Source: Stramenopiles sp. TOSAG23-2 (lineage: Eukaryota). Taken from it: a stretch of 49,470 nt of DNA. The notes beneath the pieces were generated by a model, which saw nothing but the letters and a program-made list of their open reading frames with translations, did no database searches and was not told the origin of the DNA. Position numbers and translations under genes: made by a program. Shown one piece after another: positions 26 through 46,500 of this stretch (within the stretch, counting starts at the first letter, position 1; each line of letters opens with the position of its first letter). The DNA lies in assembly GCA_900128395.1 (NCBI GenBank), contig LT649273.1, positions 1-49,470 on the forward strand. Direction: 5' to 3'.

Positions 26-3000
26 ATGATTCTGAATTATAGATACCTCCACCAATGCATAGCAGATGAAAATAGTTTGACAGCAACTACTTCATATTAC
101 AGCAGTGCTATATCAGTAGGTGACGGTAGTGTTTTATACTCTGAAGGTCCAGGTTCAGTCATAGTTTCAAACAGTTCTTTTCGCAATAACACAGCGGGTG
201 ACGGTTGCATTTATCTTAAACTTGCAACTATTTCATTAAGAGTTGTCAATACTCATTTTATGCATAATAAAGCATATACAAACGGAGGGGCAATTTATAG
301 AACATTGGGTTACAGTAGCACACCTACTTCAACAAAACTTGTTGTTATCAAAAATTGTACATTTACGAATAATGTGGCAGGTTATGGATACAATTATGCC
401 AGTACTAGCTATGTGTATAATAAATATGGTGGTTCATTATACTTAGGTGGTTACACTAGCAATGATGTTATTATTACAAATACTGAGTTTGTTAATAGCG
501 TTGCTGCAAAAGGAGGAGCTATTTATATAACACGAACCCGTAATGTATCTATCTCAAATTGTACATTTAAACAGAATCAAGCGAAATTTGGTGCGGGTGC
601 AATATACTTCGAAGATATGCATGGTGTAATTATTATAGATAATACGACATTCGATGAGAATGTTGCAGAGAAAGACCAAGGTGGTAGTTTATATGCTGAA
701 TTATGGTCCAGCATACCAGATAACGCTAAAAGATACACACACCTCGTCATAAATAATTCAACCTTTATAAATAATTTTGCACAAAAAGAGGGTGGTGGAA
801 TATATATGAAAGGTTACAAATATTCTAACCTGTTTATTGCTGCGCAATTAGAAAACGTAATATTCAAAAATAATTCTGCCACATTAAGTGGTGGTGGCAT
901 TTATAGTGAATATGGTCATTTGATAGGCTCATCGTTATATTTTACCGAGAATAAAGCTGGAACACAAGGTGGTGGCGTACACGTTGAGGATTCTGGAGTA
1001 GAAAGCTCGTTTTTGAAAAAATGTATATTTATTCAGAACCAGGCTCCATGTGGATTTGCTGTTTCAGTAAAGAAGCTCTATTTAAAAGTTTCAAAATGTC
1101 ATTTTGAAAAAAATTTCGATTCAAACAGTGATGTAACTGGTAATGAAAAAAAAGGCGGCGCTATTTATATAACTGATCTCGGAACTATTACTACAAATGG
1201 CAAAGACTTTTTTCAAGATGTTGAAATATTCGAAACTAATTTTTTTCAAAACTATGGTCAATATGGCGGTGGTGTATTTCTAAATAAAGGTCCTCGTAGC
1301 ATAAAAATATATAACAGTAACTTCACAGAAAATATGGCAACAAAACAAGGTGGTGCAATATTTGTACTAAGTTCGGGGGTACTTGAAATTTCTTCAACAT
1401 ATCTAGTCCGAAATAATGCAAGTATAGATGGTGGGGCTATTGCATTGGTAGATTCTAGCAAGTTGGTGCCACATAATCCCACCCAATATAGACACGCAGC
1501 AAATTTTATTTATTACAATAAAGCTGGAAACCGTGGTGGTGGTATATTTGCTGATAGAGATAGTGAATTGATAATGGTGGAAAAAAATGCCATTAAATGC
1601 TACAACAATTCTGCAACTGTTGGTGGAGGTATCTATAATTCAGAATCATTGTTACACGATTTTCATTATTCTAATTTTCCCATACATAATTCCGCTATCA
1701 ATGGATCTGATTTAATAACCTTTTCAGAGGTAAAAATAGTTTGCAAATCTTCTACATATTTTCCGTTAAAGGTCTTCGACAAAGCTGGCATTCCACATGA
1801 TACTTGGAACAATAATAACGCATTAGATAATGTCTTATGTTTAAAATGTAACGATGGTGAATTTTCTGAGGAAGGTTCAATTAATTGTGAAAAGTGTATT
1901 CCAGGAAAAGCTGGTAAAAATGGTTTTTGTGCAAAGTGTCCGATAAATACGTTTCAGCCAACTTACGGGGGAACAGTTTGCGAGAATTGTGGAGAAGGGC
2001 AATATTCTACCTCGGTTGGAGCATTTGTATGTGAACAGGCTCCAAAACCTTGCACACCTAAAACACCTGAAATATACTTGACGGATCCTGGAAGTAAAAA
2101 AGCAATATCATTATACAACATTACAATTTCATGGATTGTTGATAATAATTATACAGCATGTACAAAATCTGATGGATACGAAATTCAAATTTCGACACAC
2201 AGAAAGTTCCCAGAAGAAGATTCATATGAATATATAGTGAATAGCGGCAAAATATTATCCAAATCCATTCGATTAAATAATTTTAAGATATCTGATAAGG
2301 AACACTTTGTACGTGTAAGAGGATTTAACAAGACGACACTTGCAAAAAGTTCATGGTCTTCTGAATCTGAAGATTATAAAAGTGCAGATACATGTGCAAC
2401 TGATCAATACTTGAATATATCTAGCTTAACTCCTGTTAACAATTGGAAATGTGACAGTTGCCTTGATGGTGCTACTTGTGATCGTAAATACAATAATAAT
2501 AATGAACATGCCTTAATTGTTAGAATTGCGGAAGCGGCTAATGATAATAAATTCATTATGAATGGTATAAAAGCAAAATATGGATATTGGCGTTCAAACC
2601 GAAATACTTCTTACACGTTTGTTAAATGCTATTTCGAAGCGGCGTGCCTTGGTGCACCAAATTATGAATTATTGGGTAAATTTGAGGATGAACGTCTTGA
2701 AGATCCTGCTGTTCAAAACCATCCTGAAATGTGTAATGTTCATGCTGGCTATCGGGAAGCCTGCTTGTTTCCAGTAGAAAATGGAAAGGAGGTAAAAGGT
2801 CGTTGTCGTTTATGCATGTCATGCACAAAAGATGCTCGTAGAGGTTATGCATCTCCACGATGTAAACGATGTCCAAAAAATAACATTATATGGGTAACAG
2901 TTGCCATTGCCCTGATGATACTTGTATTCACGGTGTTACTTCGACTTGGATTGTCCATGAGTGGTAGAAAAAAACAATCGAGTCATCAAAGACGGATGAT

Positions 3001-4491
3001 ATTAAGCTATATGCAAATGAACACACTATTGGCAACCATTGGTATAAAATGGCCTCCGGGAATGTTAATGATGTTTGATATTCAAAGTGCTATTAGTACA
3101 GTCGGTGATCACATTGTAAGTATATACATTTCTTTTCTTCTTTTAATTGAAAGCATTGCCTATCTAACATTCCTACGTATATATTATATTTTGTAAAGTT
3201 AAAAATTGATTGTATAGTACCAAATATACGTCCACAGTGGCTTATATTAAACATGCAGCTAGGATATGCAGTTTCGCCATTTATTGCTGCAATTGTTTTA
3301 TATGCATGCATGCCATGTTGTACATACAAGTTACGCGCACAAAAGGTTGGAAGATTACAAACGAGAAAAAATACAACAATTAAAGCCATTGTTCTCCTTC
3401 TTTATATGTCTTATCCATCATTAGCTAGACAAGCGTTTTTGCTTTGGCATTGTGTTGGTTTAAATGGTCGTTGTGTAAACAATGGTATTGTTCATCCCAA
3501 CATAAATGAATATACTTGTAAAACGGAAGCCATGGTTAAACAGGGGTATCAATGGATTTTCGATAGTGACCATGGTTTTGGTGATTATTTGTATATGGCA
3601 ACAGAACTAAAATGTTGGGAAGGCCATCATGCATTGTATTTATATGGAATCGGTGTACCTCACGTACTTTTATACGTATTTGGGTTGCCAATGATTGCAT
3701 TGATTATTCTGTATCGTCATCGCAAAAATGGAACAATGCGAAGTCCTGATACTTTATTTTGTTATGGATTGTTGTACGATGGATACCATGAATCGAAATG
3801 GTGGTGGCAGAGTGTAATTGCTTACATCAAAGCTTTGATTGTATTTGTTTCCTATTGGTGGGCAGAAACACCAGTAATGGCAATGTTGTTTTCCAATCTA
3901 ATTTTCACAACACTACTGTTGGTTGAAACAATAGTAAAGCCATGGGCGGTTAGTTCTAGAACGAAAGAACAGATAAATTCTATGAAAATTGCAAAACGTA
4001 GAAGACAAAGTTTAGCAGCTATGTTTAAAAATACAGCCACAGAAGCCTTGAACGAGAGAAATCTTGCTCAATTCAGTTCTCTTTCAATCTTTTTATGCTC
4101 ATTGACTGGATGGAGTGGACTGTATTTTTATTTATCACCTCAATGTAATGTAAACAGCGGTTTTTTATGGATATGTGCGACAATAACAATTGTAACCATT
4201 GTTTTTCATATTCTATTTATAATATGGGCTTTTCGTAATATTGTTAAAACAAAAATGTCAGAAATAGATAAATCATTTCGTCGAAGAGTAACTCGTGTTA
4301 AAAAACAAAAAAGTCAAAAGGCTGCATTGGAAAATACTATAAATATTACTGATGTAGAAATGATGACAGTATCAAAGCATCGAAATAGTGTTTCAAACAT
4401 CGAACGAGTTGACGATGAAATACATATACATACAAATGAACATGACGAAGAGATTGAACACGTGGTTCCAACATATAAATTTACTTTATAA
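26..4491 (+). CDS. Pmp-like beta-helix repeat / Cys-rich / FN3 / multi-pass membrane protein; join(<26..3115,3199..4491), probably 5'-partial
   Basis: Many GGAI/GGGI and FxxN repeats (Pmp/pectin-lyase-like), CxxCxxGxF Cys-rich repeats and an FN3-like segment (YNITISW...YEIQIS...FVRVRG), then about 7 hydrophobic helices. The two ORFs join in frame across intron 3116-3198 (GDHI|LKIDC). There is no signal peptide at Met26, and the frame is open back to a TTAG acceptor-like site at 1-4. Confidence 0.8.
3116..3198 (+). other. Spliceosomal intron (83 bp, phase 0)
   Basis: GTAAGT donor at 3116, CTAAC branch site at 3164-3168, AAG acceptor ending at 3198. Removal fuses ORFs 26..3196 and 3253..4491 in frame. 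Confidence 0.85.
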
Positions 4492-6920: not shown

Positions 6921-7982
6921 TTATTTATCTCCTTTCTTCTTCTTGTTCTTCTTATTATTATTATTGTTGTTGTTGTTATTACTACTATCTTCTTGCTTTG
7001 CTAACATTCTTTGTATTGCTTGTTCTCTTGTAATGAAACGACTATTACTATATGCATCTCCAAGTCTATGTCCACGACTACGAGTCCAATCCATTGCTTC
7101 GGCTTCTTTTTTGATTAATGAATTCAAAGCTTTGAATTCATTATTGTGTTCCGAAATTTCATTATGTGCTAGCTCGTGATATAATACATTTAGAACACTT
7201 TGCATTTTTCTAAATCCTTTTAAATCATCTGTACGTATCCGGAGTAAAATTTCTTCTCCATTGTTTTTATTCAAACCCATTATACATTCTTCAGATTCTC
7301 CAACTTTACCATCTGGATATAATTCTTTTAACACTGGCACTTTCCAACGATGTTTTTCCATTACTTTTAATATTCCTGGATTATTTGCAACTGTATTTAA
7401 CATTTCCTCAGCAACATCTCTATCATCAAACCCTGGTAATGGCTCAATATGTTGAAATCCATAATCTCTAGGCCTTTGCCTTCTTCCATATTTTTTATTC
7501 TTGTTGCTTTTATTGCTAATTTCTACACCATTCGTACCGAATAATTTTCCTGATTTATAATCATATCCTGTCAAATCATTTCTCATCAATTTATCATCCT
7601 TTTTCAAATGTTCGTTCATATTTTCAATCGCTTTCGTTGGGTTTCCAACAAGGTTAATATTACATATCATTGAATTATTTTGTTTTTTATTTTTTTTAAA
7701 TTTAATAAAATTTTGTTTCTTATCTACATTTATATCATATAAAAATTGATCAGCACTCAGCACGTTTTGCAATTGCTTTCCTTTTAATAATAATTTTTGA
7801 TTTACAATCTCAATACCAGTTTTTTCTTCAAGATTTGTTTGTAACTGTTTTAGTGTGGTTAAATTTGGAATTATTTGTATGTTCATTTTATTCGTTTTCA
7901 ATTTAATTTGAATAATATATGATAATTGTGTATTATTATTGTCGTCAGGATTTATATTATTATTTACTAATAAAGATGCCAT
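6921..7982 (-). CDS. Ubiquitin-like domain + WLM (Wss1-like) zinc metallopeptidase
   Basis: UBL-like segment (TLKQLQTNLEEKTGIEIVNQKLLLKGK). WLM motifs MEKHRWKVPVLKE, GLNKNNGEEILLRIRTDD and HELAHNEISEH. First true ATG is at 7982. Confidence 0.9.
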   Translation of the reverse strand: MASLLVNNNINPDDNNNTQLSYIIQIKLKTNKMNIQIIPNLTTLKQLQTNLEEKTGIEIVNQKLLLKGKQLQNVLSADQFLYDINVDKKQNFIKFKKNKKQNNSMICNINLVGNPTKAIENMNEHLKKDDKLMRNDLTGYDYKSGKLFGTNGVEISNKSNKNKKYGRRQRPRDYGFQHIEPLPGFDDRDVAEEMLNTVANNPGILKVMEKHRWKVPVLKELYPDGKVGESEECIMGLNKNNGEEILLRIRTDDLKGFRKMQSVLNVLYHELAHNEISEHNNEFKALNSLIKKEAEAMDWTRSRGHRLGDAYSNSRFITREQAIQRMLAKQEDSSNNNNNNNNNKKNKKKKGDK

Positions 7983-8850
7983 TGTTTTCACACACAGAGT
8001 GAGAGAGAGAGAAAAAGAGACGGATACGGGAAAATATAAAATATAATATTATTATATGTTGATCTATCTCACCACGGTTTGGTATGTACGTGCTGAAACG
8101 TTTTGATCCTTTGTACAACAACTTTACAACTTGTATTATTTGTGATGCATGCGTGCGTAGTTTTCCTTTCACTTCTAGAAGAATGAGGGTTTACCTAATT
8201 TTGTACTCTAACCAGTATAAATGTATTTATTTTGTACAAATCATGTTGACAAAATCTCCTCGCGTAAATCCATCACAGGCAAATGTTCTAGGATCATCAA
8301 ACTTGTATTGCGGGTATTTTAGTGTTGTGCTGTTCTTCAAAAATATATAGTTTTTTTACAACAATATTTATACGATTCTATTCCCATGTTAAAGTCTTCT
8401 ATATTTATATTTATGGTTTAGTTATAATCGAGTTTACTGGTTTTTTACTAATACTAATATTTGTTCTTCATCAATTCTTTCGAGAGTTGTGAGGAGTGTA
8501 AAAAGTGTAAAAATGTAATAAAATGATGCGAATTTTTTTTGATAGGAGCCAAAAGGTGATTATTTGTTTTATGAAATCTTCTTCTGCAACGCTTTTGTGC
8601 GCTTCTCTCTGCTTCTTGCTCTTCTCTTTAGTGGCGCCCTTATTTTTTTAAGATACGCCGGATCGAATAAATAGAATATATATAAATATCAAAAGATACA
8701 AGTGGAAAAAAGGCCTACTACGCCACAACAATATTACTGGAAGAGGAAAGGGTGTGTGTTTAAAAATAACATAATAGTAATTCTACAAAAAAAAAAGATA
8801 CAAGTGGAAAAATAGAAACCATTGACGTAAAGCTACAAGTTTACTCTAAG

Positions 8851-23311: not shown

Positions 23312-24346
23312 TTACCCTCGTCGTTGCCGAACGTTTCTCTCTTGATCATTAGCATTTGATGTAGATCGACTACGACCTCTTTTTCTTCCATTATTATTAT
23401 TATTATTGTCAATGCTTGCATTATTTTGAACATTACTGTTATTATTATTAATGTTAGCTGCTGCTTGTTGCCTTTGTTGTTGTTGCATTTGTTGCATTTT
23501 TACATGAAAATCAAATGCACCATATATTAAACCATAACCACTTCCACCAAAACCACCTTGACTACCACGTGGACCACCAGGCCCTTGTTGTTGTTGCATT
23601 TGTTGCATTTTTACATGAAAATCAAATGCACCATATATTAAACCATAACCACTTCCACCAAAACCACCTTGACTACCACGTGGACCACCAGGGCCAGATC
23701 CACCTTTGTTTCTATCTTGTTTCTTATCTGGAATAATTGGAACTTTACCACCACGATTTTCTGCACGTTTAATTTCAACACTTTTACCTTCTATAGCATG
23801 TCGATGTTTTAATACCTCATCAATGGTATCTTGGAGTGCAAATGTTACGAAACCAAAACCACGTGAGCGCCCTGTTTGTCTATTTTTTGTAATTGTACAT
23901 TCATCTACAGCACCAAACCGTTCAAAATATGCAATAATACCATCAGTTGTTGTTGATAATTTAAGACCACCAACAAATACTTTTCTTGCATTTTTACTAC
24001 GTTCTTCCTCAACTTTTTTTTGGAAAATTGGATTATATTCTGGTACAGAGTGTGCTACTTTTCGATTGTAATTGTTGTTGTTTCCACTACTACCTACACC
24101 TTTTTGTGCAGGTTTTAATTCTACACGTTTCCCATCTATTGTATGTTCCATTGGCATGACTTGCCTTACTGTGTCCACAGTCGTAAATTGAACAAAACCA
24201 AAACCTCTTGATTTTTGTGTCATACGATCGAACACAATGTTTGTTGCTACCACTTCGCCATAGCGACTAAAATATACTTTTAATGAATTTGCAGAAGTTA
24301 AATGATTCAAACCACCTACAAATATTTTTGCTGCTGGGTCCTCCAT
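23312..24346 (-). CDS. Two-RRM RNA-binding protein (hnRNP A1/Musashi/DAZAP1-like)
   Basis: KIFVGGL / RGFGFVQF and KVFVGGL / RGFGFVTF RNP2/RNP1 motifs, with a Gly/Gln/Asn-rich tail. The true ATG (MEDPAAK) is at 24346. Confidence 0.93.
   Translation of the reverse strand: MEDPAAKIFVGGLNHLTSANSLKVYFSRYGEVVATNIVFDRMTQKSRGFGFVQFTTVDTVRQVMPMEHTIDGKRVELKPAQKGVGSSGNNNNYNRKVAHSVPEYNPIFQKKVEEERSKNARKVFVGGLKLSTTTDGIIAYFERFGAVDECTITKNRQTGRSRGFGFVTFALQDTIDEVLKHRHAIEGKSVEIKRAENRGGKVPIIPDKKQDRNKGGSGPGGPRGSQGGFGGSGYGLIYGAFDFHVKMQQMQQQQGPGGPRGSQGGFGGSGYGLIYGAFDFHVKMQQMQQQQRQQAAANINNNNSNVQNNASIDNNNNNNGRKRGRSRSTSNANDQERNVRQRRG
23474..23692. repeat. In-frame coding tandem duplication, period 111 bp (37 aa)
   Basis: GPGGPRGSQGGFGGSGYGLIYGAFDFHVKMQQMQQQQ occurs twice. 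Confidence 0.9.
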
Positions 24347-24471
24347 TATATTATTATTATTTATTATTATATCGTAATAATGCAAAAAAAAAATAAAATA
24401 ATAATTATCAAAAAATAAAAAATGAAATTTTAAAAACTGATTAGACGTAACTATCTGTAAAGTAATATTAT

Positions 24472-24704
24472 AAAACAAAATAAAATAAGTACACGAGACG
24501 ACTATCTAAAAAATTATTATAAACAACAAAGATGAACATCTATAAAATAAATATAGAAACAACAACTATTACAATCTCATTTATCAAAACAAAATAAAAT
24601 AAGTACACGAGACGACTATCTAAAAAATTATTATAAACAACATAGATGAACATCTATAAAATAATATAGAAGCAACAAAACTATTACAATCTCACATTTA
24701 TCAA
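24472..24704. repeat. Imperfect tandem duplication, period ~114 bp, upstream of the RRM gene
   Basis: aaaacaaaataaaataagtacacgagacgactatc... starts at 24472 and 24586, with a few substitutions and indels. Confidence 0.85.
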
Positions 24705-31818: not shown

Positions 31819-34800
31819 CTACACTTTCAACTTTTTAATATTTCTAGTATCTGTAGCAGTAGCAATCATATCAGTTTTTACTTCATTTCTAGTAGGATCT
31901 ACTTGATTTTCCAGCTCAACACCATTTTGTTTACATTCATCAGTCATAATTTGCAGTCTGTTTGGATCTGGCCAACCATGATTTTGTGGACCACCACTAG
32001 TTTGGGTTTTCTGGTGTATTCCTCCCCAAATTACACAATTATCCATTCCAGAGGATACGCTTTGCCCGACAACAAATAAAACCCCTTTCATGAATGCTTT
32101 CTTTAATAATTCAACCATGGTAATGCCTTCTCTTGTATTAGGATAGTAACAGCGCCTGGTCGTGCCACGATAATTTTTGCCTGGGTTTTTCATTCTACTG
32201 CCTTGTATTGAGTTGTTAAAAACGTAAGTTATTTCATAAGTTCCTTGTCCAGAAGATCCACTGCAATGTAAATTTTGTAATAATTTTATTGACATTGACC
32301 CCGAAGGCTGAGCACCATTTACATTATTAAAATGGTGACTACACAAAGGACACCGGGCTTTATTATCCAACCACCTCTTCAATGCTTTTTTTTTAAATAC
32401 ATGACCACAAGGCAATTTTACAACACCAATCTTCACTCCGTCTCCGATCGGCTGAAAGTCAAAAATACATTTTTCTTGCGGATCATACTCGGGTGGATAA
32501 ACACGTTTCCATCTAGCCACGATGTCCCAATCAATACTATCCTCGTATCGAAAAGTTAAAGTATCATTGGTAACTTGATGCCACTTCTTCCTCTTCTTTT
32601 GCTTGTTTTTGTTGCAATTGCTTGCATTATCAATTTTTCTGCTAGAAAATGTATTGTTGTTGTTATTATTGTTACCAGTTGTTGTATTATACAAATATGG
32701 TGACCCTACATTTGACATTGCATTGTTGCGGATACTTGCAACATGTCCATTAAACGTATTGTTATTGCTATTTTCAAAATGGACAACAAATATTGGCAAT
32801 TGATGCGCAGTTTTATTAATAACTACAACATTGGAATTATTATATGTCACACCGCTATTGTCCATCAAGCATGCAAATACAATCATTTTTAATTTCTTTC
32901 CTTTACAATAATTCATTGAAATCTGTGCAGATGTGCCAAAATATTCTCCCGCACCATGCGCCTGGCCATGGCATCCACGTTTTTGAGGATCCATTCCATT
33001 CTTACAAATATTAGCAACATTTTTCGTATCTGTCCCATGGAACATGCATTTTATTACCTCACTTGGCACACTTTGCCATGATTCAACAAAATTATTATAA
33101 AGGTTTTGGCCCGGTAACGAATAAATATTCTTTTCAACGCGCGTTATTTTGTACTGAGGGCATGTTGCTTGAAATTTCGTTAATAGAAAATTACCAATCT
33201 CTTTTCGTTGTATCTGTAACAAGTCAAGCACACCATGGCATTCATATTGCCCTACATGAGCTTCGCCACCACATTGGACACAAATTGATGATTTGCATAC
33301 AGAACACTTATTGCCATGTTTAGAATTGAAATCAATCGTTGGTTTTGGACCAATATGATTTGCATTGTGCTGTATCCCATTTATGATGTTCATTCTAGTA
33401 TTTAAACATGTATCACTTTGACACCACCATAAATTGGGATTTAAAGATACCCGCTTTTCAACTAATTTTCTACGTAACGATTCATACAGTATTTTTTCAT
33501 CATTCTTTTTGCCATTGGTAATAAACATTGAGTTTCCAGTGACACGTTCCCCTACAAACAACACCTCTATATCTTCCTCTTGAATTATAACATCAAATTT
33601 GCAATGACATAAATGTTTGCACTTTTTGTCCGATTTATTTTTACAAATATATTTTTCAACGGGGCATCGAAGACCTTTCACTAAAGGCATTTGCAATAGG
33701 GTGCTTAGCTCATTTACAAAGTGATTTTTCAAACATTCTTTACAGCAATGCAATTCATGATAGTTGCGCTGACCAATCGTGCATGAAAAAGAATATGGTA
33801 CCTACACGTAATAGAGAGTATATATTTACAAATTTTTATTTCCACGCATAAATTATATTTAAAGTTTGTTTAGATATGCATATAGACTAAGCGGTTAGTT
33901 AAATACTAGAAATGATAATGTGTGTTTGATGGTACTTACAAAATGTTTGCATAAAATACACGAAAAAGCAGTTGATAATAAATTTTTCCACCTCGACACA
34001 CTTTCAATACAGAATTTACGAATACCCGATGCGTAAGTACCACTGTTACGAATTAGTGCAATGACATTGTTACTTTCATCTAAAGATGACGGCTTGCTCG
34101 TTAATACTGTATCCAATTTTGTTGAAACCCAGATATGTTTATGACGAATAACTGAGGCATAATCAAAATATTTCATACCACGTATTATATTTACCGCCAT
34201 TAAAATATCTTTAATATTTTCCCACTTCTTCATAGTTATCTTAAAAGTAATATTTAGGTCCCTTTCTTGAAACAAAAATTTAAATCCATCGTTTCGTCGT
34301 TCTTCTAGCGATTTGCGCTTCTTCGGGACATCTTCATCAACAATTAACCCAATAGAATGCGCAGCATATAAATCTATAGGGTTATAATTTACGTAAATAT
34401 TTCGAGGCGCTATATAATCTAGCAAAAACGTCTTGTTAAAATTGACAGCCTTGAACAGATTCTTCCATGCAAACACTATAGACTCGACAAGACTCTCAAA
34501 TAGGTGGGTAACGTTTTCTATTTTCGATGTTAGCATTGTAAGTTCCAACTTTAAGTCTTTAATTTTTGTTTCACTGTAATCATCAAACATAAATAAATGT
34601 GCTTGGTGGTTTGAAGTCGCACTAGTCACATCGCACTTTGATATTTCGCCATTGATTATACATTTTTTTAATTGGATGAGTTTTTGTAAGTTCGTCATTG
34701 CCTCTTCACGTAGACTAATTTTGCGTTTACAAGTTTCTATTTCCAGATTTAAATGTTTGTTATGGATAGATGTTTCTGACGTGTATGCATTCAGATTATA

Positions 34801-37800
34801 TTCGCCTAACGCTAGCCTTACATTTAACAATATGTTATTCAAAAAGGCACATTCATTTTTGTGCCCATTTAAAGCATTTACAGTTGTTTCAACAAAATTT
34901 TTTAAGTTTGTTAAAGGAATGGTTTGAACGTTTTGGACGTATCCAACTAAAAGTTCCGGTTTGAACGGCGGCCGTTGGAAATGATGCACAAATTTAAGAT
35001 CTCTGACAATTATAATTTTGCCATCCGTTTTAAGCAGTGAAATGCTTTCTATCGAGTCTTCTTTCCAACTTGACCCAGTAGCTACACCTGATGATTTCAA
35101 TGCAATATCTGAAATAGTAAATTTGGGTTCACGTGAATTGCTATTACAACCTGAATAAAAAACTACATCTCCCTTGGAAAATTCTCGCATCTTTAATGCA
35201 GCGGGAAAATCGAAGTATAACTTGTATCGAAAATTACTTAGTGATTGAATTCGTTCTTCTGAAATATCAGATGGTGTATCATTTTGTATGATAAAGTTCT
35301 TCTTCCCGGCTAGTTTATTGGAACCGCTAAATGCAAAAGATGTAAAATATGCCTGTATAGACTTGATACAAATGTTAATTTTTGCAGTTCGCTCTATTAC
35401 GGACTTAGATAGCTCCATATGTTCATTTAATAGAGAATCCAAATCTTCTTCAACAACCATGCCAAGTTTTGCCTCAATTGTTTTCGGGTTATCTATACAC
35501 ATTTCATTTTTTCCACTGCTCGTTTCCATTTCTAGTGAATACGACTGGTGTTGACTTTTATAGTTCTCGGCAATCTCTGGCGTTACTGTTTTAAATGCAC
35601 TGCTACACTTTTCACTATGATCAAATAAGTTCTCCGCTCGAATCGCTTGTGGAATGACAAATGCGGCCCCGGAACCTTCCTTCCAGTTTACATCATTGTC
35701 ATCATCTTCACCACAAACTAATATGTTATGAACTTTGTGCTCTTTTTGATATCTAGGATATTCTTTGCAAAGCGTTGCAATCCATTCTGAACAACATTTG
35801 CGTACTGAAGTTGTTAAATCCAAGTTGCGTTGTAAATCTATTTTATGTAATTTGAAGAGAAGCTTTGCCCATAAATTGAAATTCATATTTGCATTACAAA
35901 ATGCATACAATAATGCACTACAAGCTTTTGCAAGAGGTGTATATTTTAAAAAGACATACTCGCTTGAAAAGAATTTTAACGATGTCTTGGCTTGCGAAAC
36001 AGTTGCTTTCTTCTCTTTTAGGCTGCTAAAAGGATAGATGTCCGCTAATTTGATCATCATGTCCATCCCAGTCACCGCATATAATCGAAAATTTAACGAA
36101 TTGTTTATATCGATTTCACAATCGTAGACGTCTTCATGTGAAACCTTATGTTCCAATTGAGTAATTATATCTTGTACACATAATCTCATATCTTTATTAT
36201 CTGACAATTTTGATGCCAATTTAATACAAACCAGACATGTAAGCTCTATTTTCGATTTTGCGATACTTTTTTGTGACAAATATCGATCCAAAATATTAAT
36301 AGCTAGTGCTAGAATTTTGCAGTCAAAACATTTCCATTCAAGCATATATAAGACCGTCCTATTACGATATTTTGGTATGAAGCCATCCTTCTGTATTTGT
36401 TCAATATAACAAGGATTCGGCTGGGTTCTTTTATATATGCTTAGCATTGTTTTTAAGCCTGACCCTTCTAATTGTCGCTGCATAGAAGCATTCAAATATT
36501 TGACAAGTTTACTAATCCCCATTATAGTATCTTTTTGCATTTGTGATTTCTTAAGACTATCCAACAAATTGCCTTTTTTATTATCACCATCGATATTAAT
36601 TGGTAAGCATGACATATTTTGCTTATTAAAATTAAGGCATTCGTACGATAATGAATACAAATCGTGCCTGGCTCTATATGCAATATTTGTCTCAAGAATG
36701 ATATATTTTACAATATCTGTAACTGACATAATCTTGTCATTTGCGAAAGTGGATATTGTTGCCGTCGTCGTCGTCGTTGTAGTGGTGGTGGTGGCCGTCG
36801 TCGTTGTAGTTGTTGTTGTGGGCATTGTCATGTTCGATAACGAAGTTGAAGTCTCGCTGCTACGAATAGCATGAAGCAAATGTATGTATAAATGTTTTCC
36901 AGTTATTTTTTTAAGTTCTATACTCGAATCAAACATTCGTATTGGCAAACATACTCTATGCCATTTCAAACATGCTAAATGTTCTCTTTCTTTTGAAGTG
37001 AGATTTCGAATATTGCGATATGCATTTTTTAATCCTGATTTATATAACAATTTTTGCACAAATGCTTGAATATTTGCTTTATTAGGAAATTTGATCATGA
37101 CTAAAATTGCTTGTTTTACAGTCATTTCGTCGCAATACACATTATTCAACACTTTAAATACATGTTCGTGCAAGAAAATATCACTTTCATGCTGAAGTGC
37201 CGATAAGATACATTGGATTCCACCTAAAGTCGCAAAACGATCTTGTATAGCTTTGTTATCATGACAAATGCTTGCCAATGCCTCGCAAGCATACTTTTGA
37301 ACATTACCATCTTCTACATGCTTATTCATTGCTGCTATAATGCACTTTAAGCCACCTAAATGAGCAATACGATCCTGAGCGGTTTTATCATTCCAACACA
37401 TTGAGTTTAATGCTTTGCATGCATTCTTTTGAATACTACTGCAATTATTTATATGGTTATTCATAGCTGCGATAACACATGTTATACCGCCCAACTTTTT
37501 AACAGCTTGTCGTATGGCTTTGTCACGCCAACTAGCGTGCATCAATGCTTCGCATGCATCTTTCTGAATAGTACCATTATTAGAATGATTCTTCATTGCT
37601 GCTATGATATATTTAATACCACCTAACTGATGATGAATACGACCATCTTTGTCACTCTGACACATGTACTTCAATGCTGTGCATGCATTTTCCTGAACAG
37701 CAACATTGTTTATATGATTACTCATCGCTACTACGATGCATTTCATTCCGCCTAAACTTGCAACCTGATACGTGCTTTTGTCGTCGTAACACACCCAGCT

Positions 37801-38979
37801 TAATATTTTGCACGCATACTTTTGAACATTACCATCTTGTTTATGATTATTCATTGCTGCAATAATGCATTGTAAGCCACCTAAACTAGCAATATGATCT
37901 TGCTTGACCCCGAAGCTCAAAGAGATATCAATCAATACTTTACATGCGCAAGACTGAATATCTATATTATCTGTATGATTATTCATAGCTTCAATAAGAC
38001 GTTCAATAACACTACAAATATCAATTGTTCCAATAGATTTCTGTATTTTATTAATACAGGATTTTGTGAAATTGCAATATTCAAAATACATCATCATGAT
38101 ATAACAGCCATGGCGTTGAATATTTAAGTCAGCTTGATGTAAATGCATTAGCTTCAATATCAATGCAATCACGTTTTCCTTTTCAAATACTAGAAAAATT
38201 TTTGGAATAGTTAGAAATGCTCGTAACGCCAACAAGTTGCATGCTTGATAGTTAGGTTCGGCCCTGTCAGTTCGAATAGCAGCAATTGCAGTACGAATAC
38301 CTTCAAACTTTATATGGTTGCGAATAGAATACCCCCGATAAATTTTTTGTATTCTAATTGCCGCTATAGTCGTTTTGTCTTTTGCACCTCCGATATGACG
38401 ATATTTTTGAAATAACGTTGAATTTGATTGGATGTTAAACAAATTTTTTACAGGCATGAAACTGTTTTTCATCAAGTCAATTACTTTCGTTTCATACAGA
38501 ATATACCATAATTCTGTTGGAACTCGTGTGCGTTTGTAAAGTTTTTCGTGTAATTCTTTCACAGTAGTAGTTCCAGATATATTAAATTTCAGCATTTTAT
38601 TGCAGATTGTTTGAACAAAAATTTCAATTTCTTCGTCTTTTGGACAACCCTTGGCTATAACATCGGTCTTGGATACACTCCCGGAATCATCTTCCATTTG
38701 TTTTCCTTTGTTAAATTCAATCATATTAGCCGCTCTTAATATAAGACGCCGCCACCAAATATACTTTGCCTTTGTATATTCATCTTCTTTCGCCTCTACC
38801 TCACTGCATGTCACATATGTTTTTCCAAGTTCATCTTTCAATGCCTTTTTTCGCGCACGAGCTTTTTCCGCTAAACCTCGTAAAGATAAATGGGTTCCAT
38901 ACTGGCAGTTTGCCGTAAGGATCTCACTTTTACCGTTGTTTGTTTTAATTGTTTGAAAATTGTTGTTTGTATTCATCAT
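31819..38979 (-). CDS. ~2340-aa multidomain protein: UBL-IQ-ARM repeats-cyclin-RING-IBR-PARP-like ART-RING-Deltex C-terminal; complement(join(31819..33801,33940..38979))
   Basis: UBL IEIFVQT...RHIGG. IQ AAIRIQKIYRG. About 8 ARM repeats (LGGLQCIIAAMNNH...VQKYAC). Cyclin box (LAINILDRYLS...CIKLASKL). RING spanning the intron. IBR (WCQSDTC...CSVC...CVQCGGEAH...C). ART (FHGT...GAGEYF...SMNY). DTC (GAQPSGSM...GIHQKT...HGWPDP). Confidence 0.82.
33802..33939 (-). other. Spliceosomal intron (138 bp, phase 0)
   Basis: Minus-strand GTAAGT donor at 33939 and GTGTAG acceptor ending at 33802. Splicing gives CILCKHF|VPYSFSC...HCCKEC...CPVEKYIC, a complete RING. Confidence 0.82.
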
Positions 38980-39283
38980 ATTTATTTTGTATATATGATA
39001 TATTTTATATTTGTTTTCGATCAATTGTCTTTAGTCGTCTACGTTCTACGTATCAATTTTATTATTATTTTTTAGACTTTTATTATTATTTTGTTTATCA
39101 AATTAAGTGTTTTATATAAGATTTTTATTTTATTTATTTTGTATATATGATATATTTTATATTTGTTTTCGATCAATTGTCTTTAGTCGTCTACGTTCTA
39201 CGTATCAATTTTATTATTATTTTTTAGACTTTTATTATTATTTTGTTTATCAAATTAAGTGTTTTATATAAGATTTTTATTTT
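38980..39283. repeat. Exact tandem duplication, 2 x 152 bp, abutting the start codon of the giant gene
   Basis: 38980-39131 is identical to 39132-39283. Confidence 0.9.
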
Positions 39284-39716
39284 ATTTCTTTCGTAAAACA
39301 ATAGGATTCAACTATCATTGTGTGGATTTTTGATCAATGGAATCAGTATAGGAACCCTTAAATTAAATCGCCAACGAAGATACGCCGCGCAACATGTTGT
39401 TTTGCTATGCTGTTTCTATCGTAATATCATCAAAAAAAAATTGTCAAAATGTAAAAATTAAAAATGAAGACCTCCTTTTCCATATTTAATATGGACATAT
39501 CATTATCAAAGGGTATATTGCACGAGTATATCTTTTCACGCTAAATTCGCCAAATTTCATCATTGTTAGAATTACAATGGTAATACTATTGTATTTCTTT
39601 TTATTTTCGCAGTCGTCGTCTGATGTGGTAATACCTGGTATCATACTATACTACATACAGTACTATATATACCTTCTTCTTCTTTGAAATATATAAATAT
39701 ACACACAGATATAGAT

Positions 39717-39942
39717 ATAGATATAGATATATAGAAATATAATAATACAAAAATACCATACAAATAAAAACATATATTATTATCATTATCATATTTAAAA
39801 ACAAATGTCGTCATCAAACCAAGCACAGCATAGATATAGATATATAGAAATATAATAATACAAAAATACCATACAAATAAAAACATATATTATTATCATT
39901 ATCATATTTAAAAACAAATGTCGTCATCAAACCAAGCACAGC
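39717..39942. repeat. Exact tandem duplication, 2 x 113 bp spanning a start codon
   Basis: atgtcgtcatcaaaccaagcacagc occurs at 39805 and 39918 with identical upstream sequence. Confidence 0.92.
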
Positions 39943-42386
39943 TTAATAATGCTTCTACAGCACCGGTTGTAAAATCGGAGGTTGGGATGAAACCAAACGA
40001 AAAGAAGAAGTTGCCAAATGAAAATAATGTTCAAAGTAGTAATGCCAAGAAAATGCGTAATTATAATTCAAAGGCTGCAGGTACCAAAAGAGCTGCGAGT
40101 AATACATTTTTTACGGTCGACAATATGAAAGTGTATCATAAGAAATCACGAAAAGTAACTACGCTTACAAACTTTGATGTCGCAAAGCAACATGGCTGGG
40201 GGGATGGAGAAAATGCTTACAAAAAAAATTTATACAAGCAAACGTTGTTAAAAGCATGTATGGAGAGTCGCTTTGAAGATGTCAAAACGTTAATTACAGA
40301 ACATGCGAATGAGGATTTTGAGGGCACAATTCTAAATGAAGAGCATTTATGCCACATTATTAATGGGAAAACCCGTGACAGCAATCTTACTGATGTACAA
40401 GTCGACATTGTCGAATATTTACTACAACATGTGGTTACAATACATCCACGGGACTCTCAGGCGAAAAATGAGCTTGATACAGCAATCACAAATACTCGGC
40501 GACCATTCGGTGGATTCTCACAACAGATGAACAAAAACTTTGTATCTAAATGGTCTTACAAAACCAGTGCATTACTAGCTGCTTTCGACAAAGTATTGCA
40601 TATTGAAGACAACCAGTTACCTGCAAATGTTCAAAGGTTGATAAAAATATTGTTGTTAAAAATGCCAGATGATGAAAATACGCATAATTTTTTCTGCTCT
40701 TTAATACATAGGTTTAATAACAATAATTGCCATCGTTATCTTGAACACTTGTTTCAAATCAATTCAAATCAATTCGGATTTCAAATTAGGTATTCATATA
40801 CGTATTTACATGAACATAGGTTTAATAACAATAATTGCCATCGTTATCTTGAACACTTGTTTCAAATCAATTCAAATCAATTCGGATTTCAAATTAGGTA
40901 TTCATATACGTATTTACATGAAAAGGCGGCTACATTCCGTCATTTGCTTCAAAGGTATCGCTTTAATTATGTTAAATTATTCGTTGCAAGACATAAGGAA
41001 ATGCCAATTGACATTGCTTTCAAAAATACTCTTGATGATGACGATTTATATCGTATTATTGTAATTGCAAAAAATATTTTGCTAAAAATGCCACATGACT
41101 CAAACCAACATGTAAAGTCTGCAATTACGCATTATTATTTACATTATACATCAACACCATTTTTAAGCATATGCAAGGAATGTCGATTTGAAGATTTAAA
41201 ATTATTTCTTACGAATGATAAGGACATTAAGATCAATGGTTTAGTTTTAAGCAATATTATGTCTCGTGAAAGTATTATTACTGATGTACAAGTTGACATG
41301 ATTGAATATTTACTGGAACATGTAGTAACGATGCGTCCACGCTTCGGCCACGTTTCGGATTCGTCTCATTCTAGAGAAATCTCATATTCCGATGTAGTAA
41401 GTGCATTAGGAAATGTTTTAAAAAACGAATTATCGGCAAATGCGCAAAGATTAATCAAAATATATTTGCATAAAATGCCGCATGACCAAGAGATGCATGA
41501 TAATGTGTACGAGTTGAAACATATTTATGAAAAAAAGCGTAATACAGCCATTACGCATATTCTATGGGACCATTATTTATATCATGCCTCAACACCATTT
41601 TTGAGTGCATGCAAGGAAGGTCGATTTGAAGATGTTAAATCATTTTTTACAAAAGAGAAGGAAAGTATGGGTGGATCAGCTACGGTTGGGCCATCTGTGT
41701 GTTTTGCTATTGGTGGTATTTATGAATCTCGTGAAAGTATGCTAACTGATGTACAAGTTGACATTGTTGAATATTTATTGAATCATGGGAAATGGGCTAG
41801 TTATAATGCATTAATGGCTGCTTTAGATAAAACAAGTCGAATTAATCTTAAAGAAGAAGCAAATTTACCAAAGAATATTGAAAGATTGTTAAAAATGTTA
41901 TTGGAAAAAATGGACAGAGGCGAAAAGGAGTATGCCGCACAGTGGTGGAATTATGGGTCCCTAACTGCATTTGATTACGTTCATAGTGCCGAACGTTATG
42001 GTACCGATGAAGTCGGCTATGGTACCGATGATCCTGGTCTACATTGCCGATTTGACGAAAAAATTAGATCTGCTATTCTTCATATACTATGGAACTATGG
42101 AGTGCATTCTGAGTGTTATATGAACTATGGTGTTGATGTCGCAAGACAATGTCACATGTGTGAAAATTATTACAAAGTTCCTTGTAATACTATAATAGGT
42201 TGGGGTATTAATGGCGAGGAACATGAAACAGCAGAATGTGTATGTTGCGAACAATTCTACTGCACAGAGGGTGACTGTCGTGGATATTGTCCTTGTCAGG
42301 AATGCTCAATTTGTGCACATTGCGCAGATGGACACGATGATAATGAGTATAATAATTTGTATAACAATGTTTGCAGCCGCAAATAA
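39918..42386 (+). CDS. Hypothetical protein with three ankyrin-like helical modules and a C-terminal Cys-rich (probable Zn-binding) domain
   Basis: Three copies of (P)FLxxCKExRFEDxK...LTDVQVDxxEYLL...LPANxQRLIKxxLxKMP. CxxC-rich C-terminus. Confidence 0.75.
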   Translation: MSSSNQAQLNNASTAPVVKSEVGMKPNEKKKLPNENNVQSSNAKKMRNYNSKAAGTKRAASNTFFTVDNMKVYHKKSRKVTTLTNFDVAKQHGWGDGENAYKKNLYKQTLLKACMESRFEDVKTLITEHANEDFEGTILNEEHLCHIINGKTRDSNLTDVQVDIVEYLLQHVVTIHPRDSQAKNELDTAITNTRRPFGGFSQQMNKNFVSKWSYKTSALLAAFDKVLHIEDNQLPANVQRLIKILLLKMPDDENTHNFFCSLIHRFNNNNCHRYLEHLFQINSNQFGFQIRYSYTYLHEHRFNNNNCHRYLEHLFQINSNQFGFQIRYSYTYLHEKAATFRHLLQRYRFNYVKLFVARHKEMPIDIAFKNTLDDDDLYRIIVIAKNILLKMPHDSNQHVKSAITHYYLHYTSTPFLSICKECRFEDLKLFLTNDKDIKINGLVLSNIMSRESIITDVQVDMIEYLLEHVVTMRPRFGHVSDSSHSREISYSDVVSALGNVLKNELSANAQRLIKIYLHKMPHDQEMHDNVYELKHIYEKKRNTAITHILWDHYLYHASTPFLSACKEGRFEDVKSFFTKEKESMGGSATVGPSVCFAIGGIYESRESMLTDVQVDIVEYLLNHGKWASYNALMAALDKTSRINLKEEANLPKNIERLLKMLLEKMDRGEKEYAAQWWNYGSLTAFDYVHSAERYGTDEVGYGTDDPGLHCRFDEKIRSAILHILWNYGVHSECYMNYGVDVARQCHMCENYYKVPCNTIIGWGINGEEHETAECVCCEQFYCTEGDCRGYCPCQECSICAHCADGHDDNEYNNLYNNVCSRK
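40706..40921. repeat. Exact in-frame coding tandem duplication, 2 x 108 bp (36 aa)
   Basis: HRFNNNNCHRYLEHLFQINSNQFGFQIRYSYTYLHE occurs twice. Confidence 0.92.
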
Positions 42387-43533: not shown

Positions 43534-46500
43534 ATGTCACTGCCAAATCTTTTTGATGAGGAACTGGGAGAATTTAACTTACAGGAAGAATTACATGACG
43601 GCAATCTTTTGGATATGGAGGAGAGTAACTTTAATGCTATATTCGATAATTCCCAGAACTCAAATCTATCACGTTCTGAAAGTGGAGGGTCATTAAGGAT
43701 GGCATCAAACGCTATTACTACTACAACAACTATAACTACTACTACTACTAATAATAACGATAATAATAACAATAGCGATAATAATAACAATAGCAATGAC
43801 TATAATAATATACAAGACGACACTGGCAGTTTGAAATTGCCCCATATTTTGGAAATAACAATTTATGAAAAAACGACTACAACCACCGGTTCAAGTAATG
43901 GTGAAAGTACTTCAAGTGGAGGTGAGAAGGGTACTACTTTTAATAAAAAAATTACTGAAGTTACAGATGACTTCTATCCTGAAAAACAAAGAAAGAAAGA
44001 AACAAAAGAGCGTATTTTCAATGTGTTAGCAAAAGCTCGTAGGTGTAGACTTAAACGAATTTCTGGAGAAACAGGCGGAGTATATTGTTGGAGTTTGCAA
44101 GATGGAAAAAATGTTACTCTGAATTCGAATACGCAAATCAAGTTAAATAAAGAAATTAAACTTCCAACTTCTTTATTTAAAAGTAGTGTAACAAGGAATT
44201 TACGAATATTTCATTTGTCTAAAAATACTGAAAAGAAAGAAAAAGTCCTAATTAAAATTGATTTTATTCCCGAATTTTATTTTGATGCTTTCAAAGTTTA
44301 TCGGAAACGGGGGAAAAGTAATAATTCTAAAAGGCCTGCGATTGATGATATAAATAAATCGCCTACAAAAACATTGAAAACCGATGGTGTCATGATCAAT
44401 TTTGAACATGGTGAGATTGGTAGTGGGATTCCGGAGGATTCTCCAATCCAAAAAGTTTCTGATGGTGGATTTTCCAAGTATCATTCAATTAGCGCGAATA
44501 AAGTAACTGGCATCAAAGGTAATTTTATTACCCTAGTAGCCGATCAACTGGCTGTATTGAGCGATCCAAACTTTAAAATTTTGATATCAAAATGTGATAA
44601 TAACATTTTGAACAAAGTTGTGAAATTAAATTTGTACAATTATGAATGGAAGATGAAAGCCGAAAGCAGCAATGGCGCTAAAGATGCTGGACCAATTGCA
44701 ACAGATTTATGGAAATTAGGTAAGGAAATAAACATTCCTTTAGTTAAATTTGAAAATGATGAAGTGGAAGTGACGGAGGAAAACATTAAAAGACGGGCGA
44801 TGGATGGTAGACGTTTGGTTGTTAATTCAAATGCACTGAATACATTAAATTTAAAATGTATTAAGGAATTAAATGAGAATCAAGATAAATTTTCAAACCA
44901 GCAAAAAGAATTAGTCATAGCTTATAGAAGTAAATTGGATAACGTTTATCGTCGCTTGTTGCCCTTTGAAAGCCATGTTGAAGATAATCGAATGAACGTC
45001 GAAGGCAATAAAATGCAGATTGCAATGTTAGAAAAACGCGTTGATAATCTTGAATCAACGAAAGTAAGCACAAGCAATATAAATAAAGTACAAGTACCTC
45101 CAGGTATTATCATCCTGTGTATTTCACCAAACGAAAAAGTGGCCGTTAAACAATTGTTTGAAAGTGAAGCAAAAACAATTTCTGAACATACTGGAGCTAT
45201 TGTTTACAGTGGAAATTTTGAAGGTGCACTGTCAACTATTGTATCTAACAAAAATTCCATTAAATGGGTGCATTTTATTGGACGAGAAACAGAGGCTTTA
45301 TTAGTTGGAGAACGTGGGCATGAAGTAGATGAACAAAGAGCAGGTTTTGTATTTTTTGCAGGGAATAATTACGAATATGTCGAAAAGCGGAAACTTATCG
45401 ATGCGCTATGCAGTTTAAAAGACAAAATTAAATTAATATCTGTCAATGCTGCCAACACTGAAGAATTAGTCAATGGTTTCTCGGTTGGAGGTATCGAAGC
45501 GGCATGGGGATGGACTGGTCAAATAAATGTTGAAGCTGCAAAAATATTTGGGGAAGAATTTTACAAACGGCTCAATGGAGATGCAATGGGAAATACATAT
45601 GATGCCTATAGGCAAACAATTTCTTTTGTGGAAAACATAATGCAAATTCAAGATGTAGTTTCTAAGAAACATTCCAAAGGCACTAGCAATCTGATTCATC
45701 CAAAGTATTTATTCGGAAACCTAACAAGAAATTTAGAGACAAGTTCTTCCAAGCAATATGACCAGACTTTAGTAGGATTACCTTGTTATATGGAAAACCA
45801 AGCATGCTCATTACTCAAAACAAAACTTTGTCCGCAAAATTTTCAACATAGAATATCAAGTACATATAATCAATTTCACAAAAATTCTCGCAAATGGATA
45901 TTTCAGGAGATACAAAGGTGGAATTCACGGGAAAAAAATATTACTGAAAATAGTCGCATGCTTATATTATCTGGTATTGGCGGCATTGGTAAAAGCACCA
46001 TAGCAAGTGTGCTTGCAAAAGGAAAAAACCCAGCAAATATCGACGTAATTGCGCATTTTTTTTGTAATCATTCGATTGAGTTGAAAAAAAGACCATATAA
46101 TGTGTTAACAACTATTGCATTTCAGCTGGCACAGAAGATAGTTTCGTATCGGAAAAAGTTAAGAGAAGTAATGTTTAATATTAATGAAAATATGAAGTTG
46201 GAAGATCTATTCGAATTATTGTTTCAGCCACTACATGAAATTTGGAGAATAACAGCAATTGATTGTAATCGTTCAGTAATCTTAATTGATGGATTAGATG
46301 AATGTGGCCCAACTGATGAGAAAAATAATTTATTGAATTGTATACAAAAGCATTTTCATAAAATGCCAGAATGGCTTTCGTTTATCGTTACCACACGCCC
46401 TGAAGATTATACTATGAAACGTTTGAAACATTTTGGACCTATCGAGATATGCGCAGAGTCGGAAAATAATATTATTGACATAAAAAGCTATTTACGCTTC

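Follow-up and report, generated by a model that had tools for sequence, protein, structure and literature searches.

The window analysed here is the whole of contig LT649273.1 (assembly GCA_900128395.1, Stramenopiles sp. TOSAG23-2; 49,470 nucleotides). Its minus strand carries two long open reading frames between 31819 and 38979, which raises the question of whether they encode two proteins or one, and of what such a protein would do. A sequence-only reading had proposed one giant protein with ubiquitin-like (UBL), IQ, armadillo (ARM), cyclin, RING, IBR, PARP and Deltex modules. The two frames proved to be one spliced gene, whose product has about 2,340 residues. The reading favoured below, which we hold to be probable, is that of one nuclear gene with two exons, from a marine protist with AT-rich DNA, in whose product the C-terminal 660 residues correspond, within one chain, to the PARP14/PARP9-DTX3L system of vertebrates. 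The gene was laid out as follows.

33895..39024, minus strand: exon-1 reading frame, 1709 residues, first ATG at 38979.
31819..33753, minus strand: exon-2 reading frame, 644 residues, open back to 33801.
33940..38979, minus strand: coding exon 1, 1680 codons from the first ATG, uninterrupted frame, N-terminus tentative.
33802..33939, minus strand: spliceosomal intron, 138 nt, phase 0, GTAAGT...TAG.
31819..33801, minus strand: coding exon 2, 660 codons and a stop.

The intron donor GTAAGT begins at 33939, the acceptor TAG ends at 33802, and an in-frame stop lies in the intron 15 codons past the donor. An in-frame GT..AG pair alone is weak evidence, because 44 such pairs in 34100-33650 could join the frames; GTAAGT is used by one of them only. 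RNA candidates were 24 marine or seawater libraries (word shares at most 0.15; 19 recorded as RNA, 15 studies). Four metatranscriptome runs were aligned to the window at 90% likeness, joints found below 95% likeness being ones that can derive from other organisms. Both frames bore short contigs of at least 99% identity in all four runs. In one of the four (run X1, poly(A)) a contig bridged the frames and skipped exactly 138 bases (33801|33940), with a depth of 4, 34 letters on its shorter side and CT..AC ends on the plus strand. This contig was near-identical to the window, since the sole nearby X1 difference of depth 4 was one base (33727). The phase-0 GT-AG intron 33939-33802, which had been predicted to join the frames of 1709 and 644 residues, was thus borne out by the sequence and by the X1 contig, and it is the one that the RNA evidence selects from the 44 pairs. 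The single gene with the proposed domain order also stood: exon 1 (5.1 kb) is uninterrupted from the UBL to the first C-x2-C of a zinc finger, and the RNA contig leads from there to exon 2.

In P0178, a 101-residue fragment from a relative (67% identical), the frame continues past the corresponding donor position and meets a stop after a further 18 codons, which would fit a conserved intron. The collection metagenome_contigs was scanned for DNA of relatives with which to compare the intron, and none was found. In viral_contigs two loci matched and were rejected as ordinary RING proteins without a Deltex C-terminal (DTC) domain. RNA loose ends at 39095/39247 and 36755-36830 were rejected because the contigs there are unrelated ones that match low-complexity or repeated DNA over short lengths, and a 30-letter loose-end consensus from RNA was not present in the window. 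A 152-bp tandem repeat (38979-39295; 2.1 copies, 98% matching) begins exactly at the first ATG and fills the region upstream.

Both frames were found already fused in EukProt model g13043.t1 (P0016; 2124 residues, unannotated), which clusters with P0003, an open-reading-frame call of 623 residues that is 99% identical to exon 2. P0016 differs from the spliced translation by 10 substitutions in 2,119 aligned residues (99.5% identical) and has the same order of Pfam domains. It lacks spliced residues 2-19, 502-562 (ARM repeats), 676-749 (Thr-rich stretch) and 1652-1720 (RING1 region), and its 5' exon is different (about 39560). The last of these gaps is a larger predicted intron (34025/33681) by which RING1 is deleted; it has no support from the X1 contig, which fits 33939-33802. 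P0016 removes the Thr-rich stretch as an intron, yet an RNA contig of 131 nt falls within that stretch and matches it exactly. The two frames are accordingly already fused in a public protein set, with a different splice and without annotation. The number of ARM repeats seems variable at 37198-37476 (minus strand), where P0016 is 61 residues shorter, and one RNA contig of run X3 goes from 37198 back to 37464, so that 267 nt of sequence are repeated in frame; the difference in length could be strain variation or repeat mis-assembly.

The order of the spliced protein is UBL, IQ, ARM, Thr-rich linker, D-type-like cyclin box, about 570 residues, RING1-like finger and IBR, ADP-ribosyltransferase (ART) domain, Asn-rich linker, one-zinc RING-like domain and DTC. 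Pfam cut-offs (bits) were 25.4 for ubiquitin, 20.3 for IQ, 20.6 for Arm, 28.9 for Atx10homo_assoc, 23 for Cyclin_N, 24.3 for IBR, 26.7 for PARP, 27.3 for zf-RING_2 and 25 for DTC. The module families named by the sequence-only reading were recovered in part: ARM, cyclin, IBR, PARP, RING and DTC scored above these cut-offs, whereas UBL and IQ fell below. The C-terminal part, on which the argument turns, contains the following.

33643..33960, minus strand: RING1-like zinc finger, split by the intron, placed by its Cys/His pattern.
33238..33477, minus strand: IBR (Pfam IBR 25.8 bits).
32767..33237, minus strand: PARP14-like ADP-ribosyltransferase domain of the His-Tyr-x type (Pfam PARP 43.5 bits, 3.3e-11).
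32572..32766, minus strand: Asn-rich linker with a basic KKRKK cluster, placed by sequence composition.
32317..32571, minus strand: RING-like domain with one apparent zinc site (zf-RING_2 29.8 bits, profile positions 16-43 only).
31918..32316, minus strand: DTC domain (Pfam DTC 130.6 bits, 5.4e-38).

The DTC domain matched those of DTX2, DTX3L and DTX1 (1e-21 to 3.5e-26; DTX2 3.5e-26, DTX3L 2.7e-24) and is a Deltex DTC by this measure. DTX2 numbering was derived from the DTX2 alignment (offset 387). The domain is identical to DTX2 at R535, W578, H582 and H594, residues reported in PMC7442474 to contact ADP-ribose, and has Val at S568, a main-chain contact. It is also identical at H582 and E608, which PMC10810221 names as catalytic. 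An AlphaFold2 (AF2) model of exon 2, built from a 69-row alignment, was confident at residues about 410-630 only (predicted local distance difference test, pLDDT, 94-98), which are the RING-like domain and the DTC. By Foldseek the model matched 6y3j (DTX2 RING-DTC with ADP-ribose) with an E of 2.1e-15 and a TM score of 0.75 over 231 columns, and 3pg6 (DTX3L DTC) with a TM score of 0.93.

The earlier label of a Deltex RING-DTC thus held for the DTC and failed in part for the RING, which is without zinc ligands 2, 5 and 6: the residues at its eight ligand positions are C D C H K A C C (5 of 8 ligands), and there is no canonical eight-ligand, two-zinc RING before the DTC. Among 52 aligned RING-DTC proteins, all eight ligands were present in 14, and 37 had no Cys/His at both positions 5 and 6. 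Because the loss is common to 37 of the 52 relatives, it is a family trait and not decay. In those 37 proteins position 2 is mostly lost too, and the site formed by ligands 3, 4, 7 and 8 alone is kept; the group has the look of a large Deltex-like subfamily with a single zinc site.

The ART domain scored 43.5 bits against the PARP cut-off, which places it in the PARP/ARTD profile family, and its best match among solved structures was PARP14 (1e-7), followed by PARP12, PARP15, ZAP and PARP10. In an alignment of 25 sequences (the query and 24 relatives from the search of representatives) all 25 had His255 and Gly285. The GEYF Tyr stood in every one of the aligned rows listed, and the Gly-Glu-Tyr motif and a second Tyr of the NAD+ pocket were conserved. 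Retention of the His and Tyr with absence of the Glu would fit the pattern of a mono-ADP-ribosyltransferase.

At the splice junction, a RING had been said to be rebuilt from the two exons. Exon 1 closes with a C-x2-C and exon 2 opens with the remaining Cys/His candidates, including C-P-x5-C, so that candidates for all eight ligands, identified by pattern only, are present across the junction; to that extent the pattern agrees with the claim of a rebuilt RING, although the gap of 7 residues between ligands 3 and 4 (Cys-His) is atypical. The IBR match is marginal (25.8 bits in P0002, 23.7 bits in P0016, against the cut-off of 24.3), and the Cys/His pattern fits. A RING1 half together with the IBR gave 0 matches at E<=10 against solved structures. 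The term RBR-type was an overstatement: no RING2 or catalytic Cys domain was found, the single IBR-type match being the only one from Pfam, and the ART domain starts directly after the last IBR ligand, so the protein is not a complete RBR ligase. A 'CPxC...IEK' stretch after the IBR had been considered as a decayed RING2 and was rejected; it aligns with the beginning of the catalytic domain of PARP14 and also occurs in PARP-only relatives.

Exon 2 is 82-84% identical to P0004, with values of 90% in the ART, 92% in the DTC, 85% in the IBR and 62% in the Asn-rich linker. Among the best 150 of 3,019 representatives (E<=1e-3), P0004 alone covers IBR through DTC. PARP and DTC were found in one chain elsewhere, with either of them first. 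The PARP match is above the Pfam cut-off in P0061 and P0085 and below it in P0069, which has a DTC, and P0028, a cluster member, is a fusion by BLAST. These four share PARP and DTC with the window protein and are without its IBR, cyclin, ARM and UBL. No description of a PARP-RING-DTC or IBR-PARP fusion was found in the main texts of open-access papers and bioRxiv preprints. The earlier statement that no described protein has all of these modules therefore agrees with the literature, but P0016 already fuses both frames and other PARP and DTC fusions exist; the parts are known families, such fusions recur, and the full combination is rare. Fold, residue and fusion evidence together lead us to regard the C-terminal part as a probable single-chain version of the PARP-Deltex partnership.

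The N-terminal half, from the UBL to RING1, contains the following.

38386..38628, minus strand: ubiquitin-like domain ending in Gly-Gly (Pfam ubiquitin 21.3 bits, below the cut-off).
38311..38364, minus strand: IQ motif (Pfam IQ 15.8 bits, below the cut-off).
37096..37920, minus strand: armadillo repeats (Arm 36.9 bits, Atx10homo_assoc 41.7 bits), at least 6 units of about 43 residues.
36733..36954, minus strand: Thr-rich low-complexity linker, placed by sequence composition.
35764..36462, minus strand: cyclin box, both folds (Pfam Cyclin_N 50.5 bits, 2.1e-13).
34045..35763, minus strand: stretch of about 570 residues between cyclin box and RING1, no domain match.

The UBL aligns over its full length to ubiquitin residues 1-76, with its terminal GG opposite that of ubiquitin, and matched single-ubiquitin chains with E values of 0.001-0.3. 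It is internal, with about 2,100 residues downstream, and cleavage at the GG would release a GG-ending fragment of 198 residues. The IQ stretch matches IQxxxRGxxxR, which we take to be the consensus. The ARM region has an LGG motif every 43-45 residues in six spaced units and is armadillo by its tandem Arm-like repeats of about 42 residues. The cyclin region was closest to cyclin D3 (1.5e-13, best) and cyclin D1 (1.5e-11) among solved structures; the cyclin D1 alignment (query 37-268, chain 13-242) covers both folds and identifies a cyclin box. The Lys of the ASK motif and the Glu of the next helix, presumably contacts of a cyclin-dependent kinase (CDK), align with cyclin D3.

For the stretch of about 570 residues, six sub-segments searched against Pfam at E<=10 gave nothing credible, no usable Atlas match was obtained, and a single-sequence AF2 model had a pLDDT of 34. 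Among 7995 scored candidates, all of them cluster representatives, there were 0 homologues of exon 1 near full length; full-length relatives may sit in clusters with a short representative, as P0016 did. A search of the same kind with exon-1 residues 1000-1709 for shorter relatives returned P0178 only.

Under the favoured reading, the ART would mono-ADP-ribosylate a bound target or the protein itself, and the DTC would dock on the ADP-ribose so made. The RING-like domain or RING1-IBR would hold a ubiquitin-charged conjugating enzyme (E2~ubiquitin), from which ubiquitin would pass to the 3'-hydroxyl of the ADP-ribose, giving a hybrid ADP-ribose-ubiquitin (ADPr-Ub) mark, or to a lysine close by. 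Choice of the target would fall to the ARM repeats and the cyclin box, the latter acting through CDK binding or through RxL-type docking as in cyclin F. The sequence-only reading had also envisaged an ARM/IQ sensor and a CDK-recruiting cyclin box that might link infection or damage to cell-cycle control. Two basic clusters suggest a nuclear location. A bolder form of this proposal, which we consider distinctly unlikely, is that in this lineage the RING2 of an RBR ligase was replaced by the ART, so that E2~ubiquitin docked on RING1-IBR would be discharged, in place of a catalytic cysteine, onto ADP-ribose made by the neighbouring ART and held by the DTC; the result would be a single-chain ADPr-ubiquitin writer aimed by the cyclin box and ARM repeats, and the GG-ending UBL could be freed as a modifier or substrate.

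Several results weigh against the single-chain PARP14/PARP9-DTX3L reading. To the missing RING2 are added the ARM and cyclin roles, which are guesses drawn from family names, and the IBR and ART parts of the AF2 model of exon 2, with a pLDDT below 50. The Pfam PARP match spans profile positions 30-109 of 199 only, and the third triad position, that of the catalytic Glu, is Asn here in a column set by hand alignment and not by structure, with residues N 7, E 4, S 4, K 3, G 3, Q 2, I 1 and D 1 of 25. The variable triad position, the match to the first half of the profile and the poor fold model would suit a PARP-like domain that binds NAD+ or ADP-ribose without catalysis, or acts as a scaffold, as has been reported of PARP9, to which PMC12687431 assigns no catalytic activity; the protein would then be a reader-type ubiquitin ligase (E3) for targets ADP-ribosylated by other enzymes. 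That alternative is unlikely, given that His255, Gly285 and the two NAD+-pocket Tyr are kept here and in relatives, that this domain is 90% identical to that of P0004 (an 82% relative), and that the nearest structures are the active mono-ARTs PARP14, PARP12, PARP15 and PARP10, though inactive ZAP is among them. E2 binding by a RING-like domain without ligands 2, 5 and 6 is likewise not assured by its sequence. If that domain recruited no E2, ubiquitin would come through RING1-IBR, or the DTC would be a mere ADP-ribose/NAD+ binder, and the C-terminal module would fall outside the Deltex-type ligases as ordinarily understood, as Cys/His at 5 of 8 positions and Pfam RING models that match the second half only might suggest. 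We regard this as quite unlikely: the reduced pattern is a conserved family feature (37 of 52 relatives), the RING-like fold is confidently modelled as packed on the DTC, as in DTX2, and the UBR4 hemiRING and SP-RING are one-zinc RING relatives that bind E2, according to PMC10873205.

The remaining alternative concerns the gene itself and takes the two frames as two separate proteins, or their fusion as an artefact of assembly or annotation. The junction is bridged by one short RNA contig alone, from one run, public open-reading-frame calls give the downstream part as a stand-alone protein of 618-623 residues, and the ARM-repeat region differs among the window, P0016 and one RNA contig. Set against these are the exact GT..AG ends of the RNA junction, the independent fusion of the two halves in P0016 and a window without N bases. 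Left unjoined, moreover, the frames would split a zinc finger between its ligands, and the stand-alone calls start at an internal Met 37 residues into exon 2, in the middle of that finger. Two proteins or an artefact are thus highly improbable, and the single two-exon gene is retained in what follows.

Elsewhere the window is AT-rich (26-39% G+C in 2-kb steps), and its long frames are of eukaryote type (RCC1-TIG, NACHT-like/WD40, AKAP7-like ligase, RRM proteins, WLM-ubiquitin). At two positions in the window, 33939 (minus) and 3116 (plus), a long frame has GTAAGT shortly before it ends and another frame then opens. The second position is that of a candidate GTAAGT intron (3116-3260, plus) close to where frame 26..3196 (Chlam_PMP repeats) stops; this frame and the new one that opens at 3151 may be one spliced gene. 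The divergent plus-strand gene 39918..42386 has no Pfam match, and its start is doubled: the 25 nt that begin with its ATG at 39918 are also present near 39806, as part of a repeat of some 110 bp (39700-39950). Genes 6-17 kb away, at 6921-7991 (minus), 23312-24478 (minus) and 43534-49311 (plus), include a ubiquitin-like and WLM protease-type protein, an RRM protein with a further match to the model of the third RRM of PARP14 (40.8 bits), and a 1925-residue NPHP3-type NTPase with WD40 propellers.

Coupling of ADP-ribosylation with ubiquitylation through PARP14/PARP9-DTX3L is under active study in vertebrates. A PARP14-like ART and a RING-DTC in a single chain of a distant protist, together with the other PARP and DTC fusions, constitute 'Rosetta stone' evidence, and these fusions suggest an ancient coupling, or one that evolved more than once outside animals. 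The single chain also offers a compact construct for biochemistry. For the ubiquitin field, an IBR-bearing RBR remnant without a catalytic domain and a large protist DTC group with a one-zinc RING are of interest, and the cyclin/ARM/UBL N-terminal half makes the protein unusual.

In vertebrates, DTX3L is the partner of PARP14 and PARP9, ADPr-Ub is made by the DTC, and ADP-ribosylation is coupled to ubiquitylation, as described in PMC12687431. The likeness lies in the PARP14-clade ART and the RING-DTC, with the DTC pocket and the catalytic His and Glu kept here. The vertebrate system consists of separate proteins in one complex and from one locus, whereas here there is one polypeptide. In a Pfam search the window protein was without the macro, KH-like and RRM domains of DTX3L-PARP9/PARP14; its RING has one apparent zinc site, and UBL, IQ, ARM, cyclin and RING1-IBR are extra. 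A study of metazoan DTX3L-PARP9 evolution (bioRxiv 10.64898/2026.04.23.720386) describes coupling by gene neighbourhood, and the words 'fusion' and 'fused' do not occur in its available part. DTX1, DTX2 and DTX4 (WWE-RING-DTC) have the same RING-DTC fold and ADP-ribose-binding residues; here there is no WWE, and RING ligands 2, 5 and 6 are absent. Parkin and HOIL-1 are RBR ligases with an N-terminal UBL. They resemble the window protein in its candidate UBL and in its putative RING1-like finger followed by an IBR, and differ from it in that here no RING2 is present and the UBL is internal with a GG. Cyclin F (FBXO1) likewise has a cyclin box within a ubiquitin ligase, whereas the window protein has no F-box and its box is nearest to D-type cyclins. 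In cyclin F the box docks RxL substrates and does not bind a CDK, according to PMC5666078. By analogy, the cyclin box proposed earlier as a CDK recruiter can be read, within an E3, as a substrate-docking module.

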